Source: an uncultured Actinomycetota bacterium
GTDB lineage: Bacteria; Actinomycetota; Actinomycetes; CAVWCF01
Direction: 5' to 3'
DNA: 64,000 nucleotides
Assembly (NCBI GenBank): GCA_963753435.1
Contig: CAVWCF010000002.1
Coordinates: 32,001-96,000, forward strand
Shown here: positions 6,205 through 15,884 of the stretch, in pieces
Position numbering within the stretch: the stretch's first letter is position 1
Layout: each line of letters opens with the position of its first letter
The notes under the pieces: generated by a model
Database searches by the model: none
The model's input: the letters and a program-made list of their open reading frames with translations, nothing else
Told to the model about the DNA's origin: nothing
Made by a program: the position numbers and the translations under genes

Positions 6205-6396
6205 TTTTGTGCCTCCAATCCAACGACGGCACGAATTGTGCGGGTACGGAACGCCCAAGTGGCGCAGGCGCGACGGGCCGACACCTAAGCGTTACCTGGT
6301 AGCGCCGAGCTGTGGTGTTGCGCCGATCGGCAACAACCGCCGGTTCGCCCGAAACGGTCGCAGGCCACAATGGAAGCCCCGACCGCCGGAGGCAAG

Positions 6397-8770
6397 ATGA
6401 CGGCCACGCCCATCACCGCAGCGCGAGTCAACGCGACGACACTGGACGAAATCGCCCAGCGTGTGCTTTGGCTGTCGGTGCGCATGGTCGATGCCGCCAA
6501 CTCCGAACGGCAGACCGGCGACGGGGTCAAGGTCGGCGGGCACCAGGCCTCCAGCGCGTCGCTGGTCTCGGTGATGACCGCGCTGTACTTCCAGCACCTC
6601 GATGCCGCCGACCGCGTCAGCGTCAAGCCGCACGCCTCGCCCGTTTTCCATTCAATTCAGTACCTGCTGGGCAACCTGGACCGTTCGTATCTGACGATGT
6701 TGCGCGCTCGCGGCGGCCTGCAGTCCTACCCGTCGCGTACCAAGGACCCCGACGAGGTCGACTTCTCCACGGGATCCGTTGGGCTGGGGGCCGCCGCGCC
6801 GCTGTTCGCGGCGGCGACGCGTCGCTACGTCGACGACCACTTCGGTCCGCGCGATCGTTCGCGCTTTGTCGCCCTCTTGGGTGATGCGGAGTTGGACGAG
6901 GGCAACGTGTGGGAGGCCATCGCCGACCCGGCCACCACCGGCCTCGGTGACGTCATGTGGGTGGTCGACTTCAACCGACAGTCGCTGGACCGCGTGGTTC
7001 CCGGAGTTCGGATCCAGCAGTGGCACGCGCAGTTCGCGGCCGCGGGCTGGCACGTCGTCGAGGTCAAGTACGGCCATCGCCTCCAGGCCAAGTACGCCGA
7101 ACCCGGCGGTCATGTTCTTCGTGACTGGATCGACGCGATGCCCAACGAGCAGTACCAGTCGCTGTTCGGGCTACCGGCGGACCAGGTGCGTGACCGGTTC
7201 CTGGACGGGGCACCGAGCCAGGTCGGTGAGTTTGTTGCCGCCATGGGCGACGAAGAACTCCGCACCCTGGTGACCGACCTGGGCGGGCACGACATGCAGG
7301 CACTGTTGGAGGCGTTCGCCGAGTGCGACCGTGTCACGGACCGGCCCAGCGTCGTGTTCGCCTACACGGTCAAGGGCTGGGGCCTGCCGATCGCGGGCAA
7401 CCCGCGCAACCACTCCGCGCTGCTGAGCCCCGACCAGATCACCGATCTGCGCGCTCGCATGGGTCTGACCACCGCGACCGAGTGGGATCGTTTCGACGCG
7501 GCTTCGGCGGCCGGGATCGTCTGCAACGCACGCCGCGACCACCTGCGCCGTGGTCCGCGCGCGCCGGGCCTGGCGGTGTCCGTGCCGGACCGGACCGGGC
7601 TGAGCACCAGCCGGCCGCTGTCCACACAGGAGGCGTTCGGTCGGGTGTTGGTGGACCTGTCCCGCGACGAGTCGGTCCGCCCGTACCTGGTGACGACGGC
7701 GCCGGACGTGGCCACGTCGACGAACCTGGCCGGTTTCATCAACCGCACGGGCGTGTACGCCCCGGCGGAACGACGAGCGTGGAACGAGGACCCGGTCCTG
7801 AAGTGGGCCGAGGGGCCGTCCGGTCAGCACATCGAACTGGGCATCAGCGAGATGAACCTGTTCCTGTTGCTCGGGCAGCTGGGGCTGTCGTGGGATCTCT
7901 CCGGTCAGCACCTGCTGCCGATCGGCACCGTCTACGACCCGTTCGTCTGCCGCGGGCTGGACGCGCTGATCTATTCCGTGTATTCCGGCGCTAGGTTCCT
8001 GATCGCCGGGTACCCCGTCGGGTGTGACGCTGGCCCCGGAGGGTGGGGCGCACCAGTCCACGATCACCGCCTCCATCGGTTTGGAGTTGCCCGGCGTCAC
8101 CTCGATCGAACCCGCCTACGCGGGTGCCCTGGACTGGCTGCTGTGCGACGCCGTCGCGCGGATGGCGGCTCGCCCGCCGCTGGCGGATCGCGCCGGGCAC
8201 GAGGAGTCCGGCGCCTACTACTTCCGACTCACCACCAGGCCGCTTGACCAGGCGCCGTTCGAGGCGGCTCGCGAGAGGCTGGGGGATGCGCTGTTGCGGC
8301 GCCACGTGCTGGCCGGCGCCTACCGGTTGGTGGATGCGTCCAACCAGGCCGCAGCCGGCGCGCCGCAGGTCCACCTCGTTGCCTCCGGGGCGGTGCTGCC
8401 GGAGACCTTGGCGGCGGCCGCGGAGTTGGCGGACGAAGGCATCGCCGCCCACGTGGTCGACGTGACCAGCGCCGACCGTCTCTACACGGATTGGCAACGC
8501 AGCTTGCGCCAAGGGGTGCGCACCGCAACCACTCCGGCCGTGCCTGGGGCGCTGCGCGCGGCGTTCGGCGACCGGGCACCGATCGTCACCGTCCACGACG
8601 CAGCCAGTCACGCGATGGCGTGGATGGGCACGGCCCTCGGCGTTCCCCAGGTGCCACTCGGAGTCGATTCCTTCGGCCAGTCGGGGTCGGTGTCGGAGTT
8701 GTACGAACTGCACGACTTGACGCCGGGATCAATCGTCAACGCGGCGCTGGCCGCCCTGGCGCTGGCCTGA
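6397..8770 (+). CDS. Pyruvate dehydrogenase E1/transketolase-like ThDP enzyme, split by one frameshift near 8008-8010
   Basis: KVGGHQASS, STGSVGLG, GDAELDEG, ELGISEMN; ORFs 6370-8247 and 8024-8770 join (IAGTPSGVTLAPEGGAHQS) if one G of GGG is removed. Confidence 0.85.
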
Positions 8771-8772
8771 GC

Positions 8773-9492
8773 ATGACGCGGGAGACCGCCCAGACCCTGG
8801 ACCGCGGCCTGCGGGTGCTGGAGTGGGTCTCGCAGTCGCGTTCGGGTCTGTCGGTGACCGAGTTGGCGCAGCGGCTGCAGGTCGGCCGAACTGTCGTCTA
8901 TCGCTTGGTCGCCACCTTGGAGGAGCACGGTCTGGTCCAGCGGGACTCCTCCGGCCGGGTCCGTATCGGCGCGGGGTCTTTGCGGTTGGCCGCGCGGGTA
9001 CGGCCGGTCCTCGCGGAAGCGTCGCTGCCGGTCCTGCGAACGCTTGCGGAAGAAGTCGGCGCGACCGCGCACCTAACCGTTGCCGAAGGGGAGGACTGCG
9101 TCGCGCTGGCGGTCGTCGAACCGAGTTGGACTGACTTCCATGTCGCCTACCGCGTCGGCACCCGTCACCCGATCGGTCGTGGGGCGGCTGGGCGTGCATT
9201 GGCGTCGCTGCGGGACAAGCAACCCGAACTGCAGGCGTCGGAAGGCGAGCTGCAGCCAGGTGCTCACGGGGTGGCCGCACCGATCGTCGGCATCCCCGGC
9301 TTCGAGGCGAGCGTCGGAGTGGTGGCGATGCAGCAACTGCCGCCCACCACCGCAGCACAGGTCATGCAGGCCGCCCATTCACTGCGGCTGGTACTTGCCG
9401 CGGAGCCCCGCGTGGACGAGCCGCCTACACCCCGGCGGCCGCCTCGACCAGGGGCAGGGTCCGGTAGCGAATCGGATGCGCCAGAGCGATAA
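8773..9492 (+). CDS. IclR family transcriptional regulator
   Basis: QTLDRGLRVL HTH, VYRLVATL, GAAGRA, GVAAPI. Confidence 0.85.
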   Translation: MTRETAQTLDRGLRVLEWVSQSRSGLSVTELAQRLQVGRTVVYRLVATLEEHGLVQRDSSGRVRIGAGSLRLAARVRPVLAEASLPVLRTLAEEVGATAHLTVAEGEDCVALAVVEPSWTDFHVAYRVGTRHPIGRGAAGRALASLRDKQPELQASEGELQPGAHGVAAPIVGIPGFEASVGVVAMQQLPPTTAAQVMQAAHSLRLVLAAEPRVDEPPTPRRPPRPGAGSGSESDAPER

Positions 9493-9901
9493 GGGTCGCG
9501 GTCCGCTCCACTCCCGGAACGTTGACGATCGCGTCAATCACTCGTTGTAGATCGGCGTTGTCCCTGGCCACCATCCGGACCAGCAGGTCGCCGGGACCGG
9601 TGATTGTGTGCACCTCGAGGACCTCCGGGATCTCCGCGAGCGCGTCCTCGATCCCTCGGTGACCGGCGACCTGACGTATCTCCAAGGTCGCGAATGCGGT
9701 GACCGGGAAGCCGAGCGCCTCCGGGTCGACGTCCGGGCCGTACCCGGTGATCACCCCGGAGGTCATCAGCCGGTCCAGGCGGGCCTGCACCGTGCCGCGG
9801 GCAACCCGGAGGCGACGCGAGGCCTCCAGCACGCCGACCCGCGGGTCGTCGTGGAACAGTCTGATCAGCCGAGCATCCAGATCATCCAGTTTGCGAGCCA
9901 T
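9425..9901 (-). CDS. Lrp/AsnC family regulator divergent from hppD
   Basis: LDDLDARLI...VARGTVQARLDRL, IPEVLEVHTITGPGDLL. Confidence 0.9.
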   Translation of the reverse strand: MARKLDDLDARLIRLFHDDPRVGVLEASRRLRVARGTVQARLDRLMTSGVITGYGPDVDPEALGFPVTAFATLEIRQVAGHRGIEDALAEIPEVLEVHTITGPGDLLVRMVARDNADLQRVIDAIVNVPGVERTATLIALAHPIRYRTLPLVEAAAGV

Positions 9902-9960
9902 GTGGCGAGCCCCTAGCCGTCGGTAGTGCAGGTTGGTGGTCCGATTGCTGGACATTATGA

Positions 9961-11618
<1,658 letters not shown>

Positions 11619-11728: not shown

Positions 11729-12346
11729 TTATGGCGACTGACTCAATGCCAGAGCGCACCAGTCTTCATCCAGGATCGGACTGAATTGGGCCCACTTGAT
11801 TTCCTCTGCGTAGTCGACCGGCACCCCGCCAGGCTGGTAATCGCCGAGCGTGTCGAACACCAGCGCGCCGTCAAGCTGTGCAACCCCCCGGTACCTGCTT
11901 CCGTCCGCGAGCGTGAGCGTGACCTGGAAATTGTCGCGCGCCTTGAACTCGTAGACCGGCCCCACGATCGGATCACCATCGATGTTGGTGCTACCGGGTG
12001 GTAGGTCGACCAGGGTTGCGCTCGTCTCCCGGAAGCTTCCGGAGAACTTCACCGTCATCAGGTGGTTGTCACTGTTGTCAGTCCAGGTCTCAGTGATGCG
12101 ATACGTGTCCATCGCGAGGAAGGCCTGACCATCACTTCCGCGCACGTTCTTTGCGGCGCCGACGCCATTTCCTTCTGCGTTGATTTGGACCTGGTCGTCA
12201 CACTCCGGGAAAGAGAACTCGAACGAGTATCGCTGCGGCTTGTCAAAGAAGGCGCCGGCCGCGCTTGCGGGTGCGGCGTTGATGCTGATGAACGCAAGAC
12301 TGCAAAGGCTGATCACTATCAGGCGTGTTTTGTGCTTGCGATGCAT
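11729..12346 (-). CDS. Secreted hypothetical protein
   Basis: Basic N-terminus, hydrophobic core, APASA cleavage site; two Cys in the mature part; GGGGG RBS-like. Confidence 0.7.
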   Translation of the reverse strand: MHRKHKTRLIVISLCSLAFISINAAPASAAGAFFDKPQRYSFEFSFPECDDQVQINAEGNGVGAAKNVRGSDGQAFLAMDTYRITETWTDNSDNHLMTVKFSGSFRETSATLVDLPPGSTNIDGDPIVGPVYEFKARDNFQVTLTLADGSRYRGVAQLDGALVFDTLGDYQPGGVPVDYAEEIKWAQFSPILDEDWCALALSQSP

Positions 12347-12591: not shown

Positions 12592-13798
12592 TCAGGGCGC
12601 TTGTCGGGCGCTCTCGATGCGTCCGGCCACCTCAGCCAACGTCAGGGCCCACCGTTCGGCCGCAGCCGCGCGGCCGCTGATTCGCACCTCATCGCCGTCT
12701 TCGAGGAAGCCCAGGAGCCGCCCGTCGCCCAGCGGCACGGGTTCGGTGCCACCGGCGGTCAGTTCAAGCAAGCTGCCCACTTGGCTGCGTTCCGGCCCGC
12801 TGACGGTTCCGGACGCGTACAGGTCGCCGGTGCGCAGCGAGGCTCCGTTGGAGGTCATGTGGGCCAGTTGCTGCCCGGGGGAGTAGTAGGTCGAGGCGAA
12901 CGGTGGTCGGGACACCACCGTGCCGTTTACCGCCAGTTCCAGATCCAGTGCCAGCGTCCACGGGTCCGGATCGTGCAGGTACGGCAGTAAGCGGTTCCTG
13001 CTTCGGTCCCGGGGTTCGCGCCGATTCAAGGGCGGCCAAAGGGGTTATCCAACACCCGACGCTGGTGGCGAAGGACTTGCCGAGGAAGGGGCCGAGCGGC
13101 TGGTACTCCCACGCTTGCAGATCGCGGGCGGACCAGTCGTTGACGAGCACGACGCCGTAGACGTGCCGGGTGAATGCCTCCGCCGTTACCGGTCGACCCC
13201 AGGGGCTAGGGACCCCGACGACGAAGCCGACCTCTACCTCGACGTCGAGACGCTCACTTGGGCCGAACCCCGGACCCGCCGATCCCGAGGGGCGGGTTTG
13301 TCCGTTGGGCCGCCCGATCGGTGTCCCCGAGGCAACGACCGTGCCGGAGCGGCCGTGGTAGCCGATCGGCAGGTGCTTCCAGTTCGGAGGCAGGGCGGGG
13401 GAGTCGGGACGGAACAGTCGGCCCACGTTCATCGCATGGTGTTCGGAGGAGTAGAAGTCCACGTAGTCGGCCACCTCGAACGGAAGCAGCACCTTGACGT
13501 CGCGCATCGGCGTGGTCAGCGTGATCGCATCCGCGTCGGACGCCAGCAGTTCCTGAACGCTGTGGCGGAGGTCGGACCACACCTGCGGCCCCGCCGCCAA
13601 CAGTGGGGATGTGGTGTCGGCCTGAAGCAACTCCGCGGGCACCGCCGCAAGCCGGTCCGCGGCCGCAGCCAGGGGCAGCACTCGATCTCCGACGCGTACC
13701 GCCGGCTGGGTGCGTCCGGCCGCCTCCACTCGACCCAGTGGCAGATGGTCGAGGCCGAAACCCGATTCCGACGCGGTCTGCATCCAGGTGGTGTTCAC
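12592..13798 (-). CDS. fahA: Fumarylacetoacetase, split by one frameshift near 12991
   Basis: DYVDFYSSEHHA, PIGYHGR, NDWSARDLQ.WE..PLGPFLGKSF; C-terminal GDLYASGTVSG...GSLLEL lies in another frame. Confidence 0.9.
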
Positions 13799-13799
13799 G

Positions 13800-14642
13800 T
13801 CAGCCCTCCGGGCTGAGTAGGCCGGCCGTGACCAGGTGATCGATCGGGTCGGTGACGCCGCAGCAGCCGAACGAAGTGAACAGCGCGCGGACTTGGGCGG
13901 CGGGTGCTGCGGACAGCAGCGGAACCACCTCGTCGAGATTGCGCCGGGCCAGTACGTCGGCCAGGTCGGCGGCTCCGGCACCGGCCAGGGCCGCTGCCAC
14001 CGCTGCCAGGACGTTCAAGAACCCGTGCTGTTCCAGTCCCGCTTCGGTTCTGACGCGGATCGGGTGGTGCAGCCCGGCGGTGAGTTTGAAGGGCAGCCGG
14101 CGCGCAACTGCGGCATGCAGAAACGCGGCCAGTTCCGCCTCGCTGGGATGCGCGTCCGGCGTCTCGCCGCCAGCGCGGAACTTGGCACGCTCCACGCCAT
14201 CAGCTGCCAGCACGTCCAACGCCGGGATGAATCCGGTTCGGGGCACCTCGATCGCCGCCGGCACGCTGAAGGCCAACTGGTCCAGTAGCACGCGGGTGGC
14301 TTGTTCGGGGTCCTCGCCGGGCGGCAGGGCGACCTCGATACCCACCAGGCCGAGCTGGTCCTCGCGGTCCAGCAGTCGGTTGCGTGCCTCGGCCAGCTCG
14401 ACGAGCCCGCCGTCGGCGACGAGCGCGACGGCCACACCCGCCTGACTGTCAGCAACGGCCAACGCCTCCTCGACAGTGGAGGCACGCAGCAGCAGCGGTC
14501 CGATGAGGTCGCCGTACCAGGAATCCCGGTGCAGCCGGTGCTCGGCCAGTGCGGTCGCCACGGCCGCGTTGCCAGGCGGGAAGACCGCCGCATCGTCGAA
14601 CAGGCCGGTGACCAAGGCGCGAATGCCCGGGTCGGTTGACAC
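13800..14642 (-). CDS. Uncharacterised protein coupled to fahA
   Basis: DDAAVFPPG, KFRAGG, FKLTAGLHH, HGFLN, SFGCC motifs; stop 1 nt before fahA start; TAGCGT 7 nt before GTG. Confidence 0.85.
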   Translation of the reverse strand: MSTDPGIRALVTGLFDDAAVFPPGNAAVATALAEHRLHRDSWYGDLIGPLLLRASTVEEALAVADSQAGVAVALVADGGLVELAEARNRLLDREDQLGLVGIEVALPPGEDPEQATRVLLDQLAFSVPAAIEVPRTGFIPALDVLAADGVERAKFRAGGETPDAHPSEAELAAFLHAAVARRLPFKLTAGLHHPIRVRTEAGLEQHGFLNVLAAVAAALAGAGAADLADVLARRNLDEVVPLLSAAPAAQVRALFTSFGCCGVTDPIDHLVTAGLLSPEG

Positions 14643-14702
14643 GAGACCGACGCTATCCGACAGTGGTCCCGACCGGACCTGGCACCCGAATAACGGACGG
14701 AC

Positions 14703-15884
14703 ATGGCTCACTATCGGCAAGTCGGCGAGATACCCGCCAAGCGGCACACCCAGTTCCGCGACCCGGCGGGGGCGCTGTACGCGGAGGAGTTGATGGGCGA
14801 GGAGGGCTTCTCCTCCGACTCCGCGCTGCTGTACCACCGGCACAACCCGTCGGCGGTTACGGAATCCCGGGTGTGGCAATTGCCGGACCAGACCCTGACG
14901 GCCAACCATCCGCTGCTGCCGCGGCACCACCGGCTGCATGATCTCTTCGATGTGGCCCAGGCCGAGAGTCTGGACGCCGTGACTGCCCGGCGCCTAGTCC
15001 TGGGAAACGCCGACGTGCGCTTGTCCTACGTCGTGGCGGGGGAGCCCTCGCCGCTGTACCGCAACGCCACCGGCGACGAATGCGTATTCGTCGAGAGCGG
15101 CGCGGGCCGAGTCGAAACCGTCTTCGGCTCCTTGCCTTATCGAGCGGGCGACTACGTGCTCATCCCGCGGGCGACAGTTCATCGATGGGTGCCCGACGGT
15201 CTGCTGCGCGCGTACGCGATCGAGGCCAACAGCCACATAGTCCCGCCGCGGCGGTACCTGAGCCGCTTCGGACAGTTCCTGGAAGCCAGTCCCTACTGCG
15301 AGCGCGATCTACACGGCCCGGCCGAGCCGCTATTGCTCGACACGGGGGAAGCGGAGATCTACACAAAGCACCGTGGCCCCGGACCGGGTGGCCTTGTCGG
15401 CTCGATCGTCACGGTGCCACGACATCCCTTCGACGTGGTGGGGTGGGATGGCTGCCTGTACCCGTACACATTCAACGTGGCCGACTTTGAACCGCTGACC
15501 GGGCGCATCCATCAACCACCCCCGGTGCACCAGGTATTCGAGGGCAACAACTTCGTCGTGTGCAACTTCGTCCCGCGCAAGGTGGACTACCACCCGCTCG
15601 CCATCCCGGTGCCGTACTTCCACTCCAACGTCGACTCCGATGAGGTCATGTTCTACGTGGCGGGCGACTACGAAGCGCGAAAGGGTTCGGGCATAGGGCA
15701 CGGCTCGATCACGCTGCACCCGGGCGGGCACACGCACGGGCCGCAGCCAGGCGCCGTGGAGCGTTCGATCGGAGCGGAGTACTTCGACGAGTTGGCGGTG
15801 ATGGTGGACACCTTCAGGCCACTGGAACTCGGTGAAGGGGGCCTCGCCAGCGACGACGGCGTGTACGCGCGTAGCTGGAGTTGA
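14703..15884 (+). CDS. hmgA: Homogentisate 1,2-dioxygenase
   Basis: DVVGWDG, HQPPPVH, PYFHSNVDSDE, HTHGPQPG, ELAVMVDT. Confidence 0.95.
   Translation: MAHYRQVGEIPAKRHTQFRDPAGALYAEELMGEEGFSSDSALLYHRHNPSAVTESRVWQLPDQTLTANHPLLPRHHRLHDLFDVAQAESLDAVTARRLVLGNADVRLSYVVAGEPSPLYRNATGDECVFVESGAGRVETVFGSLPYRAGDYVLIPRATVHRWVPDGLLRAYAIEANSHIVPPRRYLSRFGQFLEASPYCERDLHGPAEPLLLDTGEAEIYTKHRGPGPGGLVGSIVTVPRHPFDVVGWDGCLYPYTFNVADFEPLTGRIHQPPPVHQVFEGNNFVVCNFVPRKVDYHPLAIPVPYFHSNVDSDEVMFYVAGDYEARKGSGIGHGSITLHPGGHTHGPQPGAVERSIGAEYFDELAVMVDTFRPLELGEGGLASDDGVYARSWS

Follow-up and report, generated by a model that had tools for sequence, protein, structure and literature searches.

The window, a stretch of 64,000 nucleotides from an uncultured Actinomycetota bacterium (contig CAVWCF010000002.1 of assembly GCA_963753435.1), carries a homogentisate gene cluster in which an uncharacterised gene, here called X, directly precedes the gene for fumarylacetoacetase. 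Gene X occupies positions 13800-14642 on the minus strand, runs from a GTG (14642) to a TGA (13800-13802) and encodes 280 amino acids; its reading frame, its homologs and a fold model make it a candidate maleylacetoacetate isomerase with a predicted (beta/alpha)8 barrel. Downstream on the same strand lies fahA (12592-13798), recognised from its reading frames and profile matches as a long, TIGR01266-type fumarylacetoacetase that is here in two frames, and whose GTG at 13798 stands one base past the X stop, leaving a spacing of 1 nt. On the opposite strand, across a gap of 60 nt, starts hmgA (14703-15884, plus), a divergent-type homogentisate 1,2-dioxygenase scoring below the cut-off of TIGR01015 and above the Pfam cut-offs of HgmA_N and HgmA_C. 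The gene hppD (10015-11145, plus), 2.7 kb away, matches the 4-hydroxyphenylpyruvate dioxygenase model TIGR01263 above cut-off. An earlier note on this DNA had drawn the same map, and its 280-aa frame with all the motifs it quoted, its three pathway genes and its placing of X, divergent from hmgA and ending 1 nt before fahA, were recovered here.

A gene for an Lrp/AsnC regulator (9425-9976, minus; profile match), divergent from hppD, is likely the regulator of the homogentisate cluster; Lrp genes adjoin hppD in other X-bearing records too. Between fahA and an SRPBCC gene, positions 11729-12346 (minus) encode a protein of 205 aa that begins like a signal peptide and matches nothing in Pfam. The fahA frame is split near 12988-12990 by one extra base, which is absent from a more distant related contig where fahA forms a single frame; near-identical contigs do not span the site. 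This split is probably an assembly indel. A gene at 6370-8770 (plus), which from its sequence we take to be pyruvate-dehydrogenase-E1-like, is likewise in two frames, suggesting indel errors in the assembly.

The GTG start of X is supported by a -10-like hexamer, TAGCGT (14650-14655, minus), standing 7 nt before it, and by the recurrence of this placement: when several candidate starts were tried per locus, 76 of 79 sequences (the window and 78 loci) had a TANNNT motif 5-8 nt ahead of some in-frame start, relative to a background of 197 among 28,703 start codons (0.7% per start codon). Such an arrangement, read from sequence, suggests that the X-fahA transcript is likely leaderless. A scan for sigma-70 promoters found none. 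In many loci a TGTCC-like stretch recurs in the X-hmgA gap (14643-14702 in the window), some 35 nt ahead of the start codon of X; it might serve as a -35 element or as an operator.

The X family and its linkage to fahA

Gene X has no family match in Pfam or NCBIfam at E 0.1, including the deoC model TIGR00126 in NCBIfam, and a PDB sequence search returned nothing usable. Its relatives are nonetheless plentiful: of 7,994 candidates scored, 1,516 proved homologous, and at 50% identity the relatives make up 5,179 clusters; single-domain members, where their sources name them, are called 'hypothetical protein'. Full-text searches of the open-access literature turned up no account of the family.

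Across 146 representatives, a set of polar residues is near-invariant, namely D16 and D17 (142 each), H35 (136), E103 (137), E132 (142), K154 (138), R156 (146), K186 (140), H192 (139), R196 (134), H206 (139), N210 (142), R252 (146) and C261 (138), although lysine conservation in the genome and metagenome locus sets described below is biased by the search patterns used. The SFGCC motif singled out in the earlier note survives in its second cysteine, which is C261; its first, C260, is kept in only 27 of 146, and no further cysteine is conserved. K154 and C261 are lost together in seven of eight loss cases among 142 sequences, and a quick tree of 72 rows, a subsample holding one in three intact representatives, places these joint losses in at least three independent events.

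Full-length copies that lack K154, K186 or H192 as well as C261 are on record (L053, L283-L287, P0123, P0124, P0132, P0133, P0153, P0245 and P0253). Where their context is known, these degenerate copies mostly lie away from pathway genes, and they may possibly form a pseudo-enzyme subfamily with a new role. Two copies without K154 and C261 (G119, G263) are still full length in front of fahA. Within genus g133, the position before fahA holds, in turn, an intact X, a degenerate X, a short remnant (E 5e-4) or none (G166:C8, G263:C87, G283:C28 and G253:C3), an apparent series of decay; guaA lies upstream in the last three of these genomes.

Gene neighbourhoods were compared in two sets, the 80 top-ranking loci of at least 543 confirmed in genomes and the 80 top-ranking loci of at least 591 from metagenomes, the latter retrieved by a distant alignment from 7 of 64 parts. 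In the former, hmgA is present in 77 of 80 loci, fahA in 75 and hppD in 34. Where at least 600 nt of flank is available, fahA lies directly downstream of X in 75 of 77 genome loci and in 50 of 58 metagenome loci, from these best-80 sets, and a 4-nt overlap joins its start to the stop of X in 49 of 61 loci. Neither of two maiA queries found a match in any of the 160 loci, of which just 68 have 3 kb on each side, consistent with what the earlier note had expected of the homologs' surroundings.

The linkage, which the earlier note had proposed to check, extends over three phyla, occurs with both types of hmgA and persists through differing gene orders. Records of Streptomyces, Pseudonocardia, Rhodococcus and Tsukamurella show the order hmgA-X-fahA, a Priestia record (Bacillota) shows hppD-X-fahA-hisC-hmgA, and in the cyanobacterium Kovacikia X-fahA is divergent from hppD-hmgA. 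Two Streptomyces plasmids carry X-fahA with no hmgA nearby, and the linkage of X is tighter to fahA than to hmgA. Rhodococcus plasmids L084 and L185 encode a FAD monooxygenase, HmgA, X, FahA, a CoA transferase and a thiolase, with hppD absent, and these clusters are likely a hydroxyphenylacetate route into homogentisate. Among plasmid records as a whole, canonical hmgA was found in 294, mostly proteobacterial, and X in 24, none of them proteobacterial, a contrast across phyla that, being drawn from plasmids and not from genomes, is no more than suggestive.

The association reaches the protein itself. Eleven of 12 longer X homologs carry the FAA-hydrolase domain PF01557, and four X-FahA fusions (among P0395-P0399) are 74-88% identical, share a common linker and have kept their motifs intact, which makes at least one lineage of fusions genuine. 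Other, single fusions are possible frameshift artefacts.

Occurrence of X among genomes

No maiA (TIGR01262) occurs in the whole source genome (2.17 Mb, 97.98% complete), so that the absence remarked on in the earlier note is not confined to the window. This genome has mshC, its own deoC (G000:C1:1003457-1004116) and, away from the cluster, one gene of the family of mycothiol-dependent maleylpyruvate isomerase (MDMPI), with one weak MDMPI_N match.

Of 301 Actinomycetota genomes, 82 carry hmgA-like genes and 15 carry X, and hmgA is present in every X genome; seven unpublished genomes are among the 82 and none among the 15. The figure of 82 is an upper bound, because L171 (in G066), a weakly hmgA-like cupin whose neighbours are a CoA transferase gene and an HMG-CoA-lyase-like gene and which is not accompanied by a long FahA, is possibly no homogentisate dioxygenase. 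With the source genome and the seven unpublished genomes set aside, 74 hmgA-positive genomes remain, 33 of which encode a long FahA and 15 X. Every one of these 15 has a long FahA, in 14 cases with X directly upstream of its gene, and the other 41 of the 74 genomes have short FAH proteins only and no X. In four loci (L166-L169, from G298, G251, G291 and G164), hmgA adjoins a short FAH-family gene (~320 aa), X is missing and the neighbours that were scanned include no known isomerase; these short proteins might hydrolyse maleylacetoacetate directly.

A second sample, 251 genomes of the class of the source organism, yielded X in 95, long FahA in 137 and both in 89 (92, 134 and 86 of 248 without the unpublished G444, G452 and G568), counts that are given without a test statistic as the sampled genomes are kin and not independent. 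In one of the six genomes with X only, the contig stops within fahA; the five remaining have lost K154, K186 and C261 altogether and hold no pathway gene within about 4 kb of X, which counts for a pathway role of the intact protein. On the other hand, 48 of the 137 long-FahA genomes, including all 22 of genus g3, have no X, and this speaks against a simple hole-filling story. In nine long-FahA loci without X, hmgA adjoins fahA with nothing between them in five, X remnants are present in two, and neither is seen in two. Thus, X is dispensable. Among the neighbour genes of 20 X-less loci, of whose 171 called open reading frames 85 were scanned, no member of a known isomerase family was found.

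These distributions do not bear out the anti-correlations that the earlier note had proposed. maiA does not score above cut-off in any of the 74 hmgA-positive genomes, with or without X, and MDMPI-family genes are present in 32 of 34 genomes tested, the source genome included, again with and without X; in G010 an MDMPI-family gene even lies beside hmgA together with an intact X.

Predicted fold and comparison with known enzymes

The AlphaFold2 model of X (pLDDT 95.7, pTM 0.93) has eight barrel strands and predicts a (beta/alpha)8 barrel as in class I aldolases. Foldseek returned TIM barrels with weak E-values, and upon structural re-alignment ranks 1-40 went to chains of deoxyribose-phosphate aldolase (DERA, a class I aldolase) or derived from it. 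An independent fold search over 48,161 chains also placed DERA in the top six positions (Z 13.0-15.0, rmsd 3.1-3.6, 194-222 residues; next 12.2), the best match being 1n7k (Z 15.0, rmsd 3.1, 200 aligned residues), with 1jcl and 3ndo also among the DERA structures compared. Racemase and GST folds are absent among the matches listed, which are barrels, and weak similarity to them is possible.

In the model, K154 (codon 14181-14183, minus) lies on strand 6 and is the predicted Schiff-base lysine, K186 (14085-14087, minus) lies on strand 7 and is the predicted pKa-lowering lysine, both assignments resting on the model, conservation and the DERA alignment. C261 (13860-13862, minus), just past strand 8, is the predicted nucleophile according to the model, its conservation and its coupled loss. 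A profile alignment of X with 30 DERA sequences sets D16, E103, E132, K154 and K186 on the D, D, E, K and K of DERA, so that the strand 6 and strand 7 lysines would be in register, as would acidic residues of strands 1, 4 and 5; residue numbers of E. coli DERA are here mapped onto the motifs of the aligned sequences by our own assignment. The alignment is not significant (probability below 1%, E 0.07-0.26 with 5 or 30 sequences) and leaves strand 8 unaligned. DERA and X further differ in sequence (10-22% identity, no significant match), in some 50 extra residues that X has between strands 7 and 8, and in the cysteine, which in X follows strand 8 and in DERA is C47, a position not occupied by Cys in X. 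The Schiff-base lysine of E. coli DERA is K167, which has its pKa lowered by K201, with D102 as the proton relay (PMC6016325).

Comparison with established cis-trans isomerases sets X apart from each of them. MaiA/HmgC/GSTZ1, the zeta-class GST (TIGR01262; EC 5.2.1.2), would share with X the reaction and the pathway slot, and maiA comes after hmgA in two proteobacterial records. X, however, has no GST or TIGR01262 match, is predicted to be a TIM barrel and not a GST fold, and would employ a protein cysteine where MaiA employs glutathione. Maleate isomerase, which has an Asp/Glu racemase fold and two cysteines, adds a cysteine to the cis double bond, after which the bond rotates. The analogy drawn with it in the earlier note gains no support from the fold, the racemase fold not being among the listed matches to the predicted TIM barrel of X, and fails on the cysteines, of which one is conserved instead of a pair; a two-cysteine mechanism was discarded for X on the latter ground (C261 138/146, C260 27/146). 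MDMPI (PF11716, TIGR03083) has a DinB-like fold. What it has in common with the predicted X enzyme is that it is a non-GST, mycothiol-dependent protein of actinobacteria, or at least a non-GST one, carrying out cis-trans isomerisation on a maleyl-keto acid (PMC6498646). It differs in that X has no match to MDMPI_N or TIGR03083, in the eight-stranded barrel of the X model, and in serving the gentisate pathway, and its family genes co-occur freely with X. By the tests made, X falls outside the MaiA, MDMPI, maleate isomerase and deoC families.

A putative isomerase role, its rivals and its meaning

HmgA produces maleylacetoacetate, which a glutathione-dependent HmgC isomerises before HmgB hydrolyses the product (PMC8449657). 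Considering its position between HmgA and FahA, X probably is a maleylacetoacetate isomerase, converting maleylacetoacetate into fumarylacetoacetate, and the earlier note's candidate reading of a non-GST isomerase in the pathway gap gains support from the linkage. X would work without glutathione transferase chemistry, by its own lysine and cysteine. Maleylacetoacetate being a cis enone, an imine of Lys154 at the C4 carbonyl would activate the double bond, the C261 thiolate would add, the bond would rotate and the thiolate would leave; K186 would lower the pKa of the Schiff-base K154, and Arg156, His192, Arg196, His206 and Arg252 are the predicted partners of the two carboxylates. Granted the isomerase role, this Schiff-base-plus-cysteine mechanism is modestly favoured, whereas role and mechanism taken jointly are advanced tentatively, at somewhat below an even chance.

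A precedent for such steps exists in DERA, in which crotonaldehyde forms a Schiff base on K167 and C47 adds to the beta carbon, giving a K167-C47 bridge that is partly reversible on heating (PMC6016325), and an evolved DERA performs iminium-based Michael additions (PMC8576802). Crotonaldehyde chemistry thus runs imine formation and thiolate addition by accident, and, as Lys-Cys bridging is known in DERA only as self-inactivation or as an engineered feature, X would represent its natural use.

The dispensability of X is compatible with an isomerase role, since a non-enzymatic, glutathione-dependent bypass of maleylacetoacetate isomerisation has been reported in mice (Fernandez-Canon 2002), and this step may likewise be taken care of by thiols of another kind or by other enzymes. 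Because many fahA genomes have no X, normal growth of an X knockout on tyrosine, which the earlier note held to count against the role, would be compatible with it as well.

Dispensability also fits a Schiff-base enzyme of the same pathway with another reaction, be it cleavage of maleylacetoacetate, decarboxylation of acetoacetate or removal of by-products, for example succinylacetoacetate or succinylacetone. To this may be added that the nearest folds of X are C-C-cleaving class I aldolases and that reactive side products of the pathway arise non-enzymatically (PMC11457941). Direct cleavage, however, would leave FahA, coupled and fused to X as it is, without a task, decarboxylation would waste a product for which activating CoA transferases sit in the same clusters, and the loss of the cysteine together with the lysine would fit conjugate addition better than a retro-aldol reaction; we regard this reading as unlikely, if deserving of some weight. 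The coupling and fusion to fahA, the restriction of X to long-FahA genomes in the 74-genome set and the degenerate full-length copies that stay before fahA in G119 and G263 might alternatively reflect a partner of FahA, acting mainly in its assembly, channelling or activation with catalysis secondary, much as fungal HmgX is an accessory factor for HppD (PMC3203155). Such a partner is quite improbable, given that the conserved Lys, Arg, His, Glu and Cys stand at strand ends, as active-site residues typically do, and that long FahA occurs without X in 48 of 137 genomes. An accessory role towards HppD itself was rejected as unlikely, because no more than 34 of the 80 genome loci have hppD close to X and the Rhodococcus plasmid clusters do not have it. 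Least probable, and very much so, is a thiol-conjugate enzyme that would take mycothiol or bacillithiol as nucleophile or strip a thiol adduct off maleylacetoacetate: the same invariant residues recur across phyla that we presume to be mycothiol, bacillithiol and glutathione lineages, which a built-in nucleophile fits better. In its favour are the mshC of the source genome and the use of small thiols by known isomerases of such type (PMC8449657 and PMC6498646).

The isomerase reading may also bear on an activity without a gene. Glutathione-independent maleylacetoacetate isomerase activity was reportedly described in Gram-positive bacteria by Hagedorn and Chapman in 1985; X, present in Rhodococcus and Priestia records, could account for it. 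In the accessible part of a proteomic study of Rhodococcus globerulus, HmgA and HmgB were detected and no isomerase is named (PMC11889516). In its broadest form, the proposal is that the numerous unannotated X proteins are cis-trans isomerases that need no cofactor, are built as class I aldolase barrels and operate by iminium activation and a protein cysteine, and that X is the gene behind this long-reported activity; it is possible and falls a little short of an even bet.

The X family is real, widespread and unannotated, and it sits in the isomerase slot. The homogentisate route of tyrosine and phenylalanine breakdown has a gap in bacteria without a GST-type MaiA, and a family of more than 5,000 clusters with no Pfam or NCBIfam model fits this gap, which X would not close everywhere, about one third of the sampled long-FahA genomes being without it. 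Should the proposed mechanism be true, an isomerase would be added to the class I aldolase fold, and X would be a natural iminium-Michael enzyme of interest to biocatalysis.
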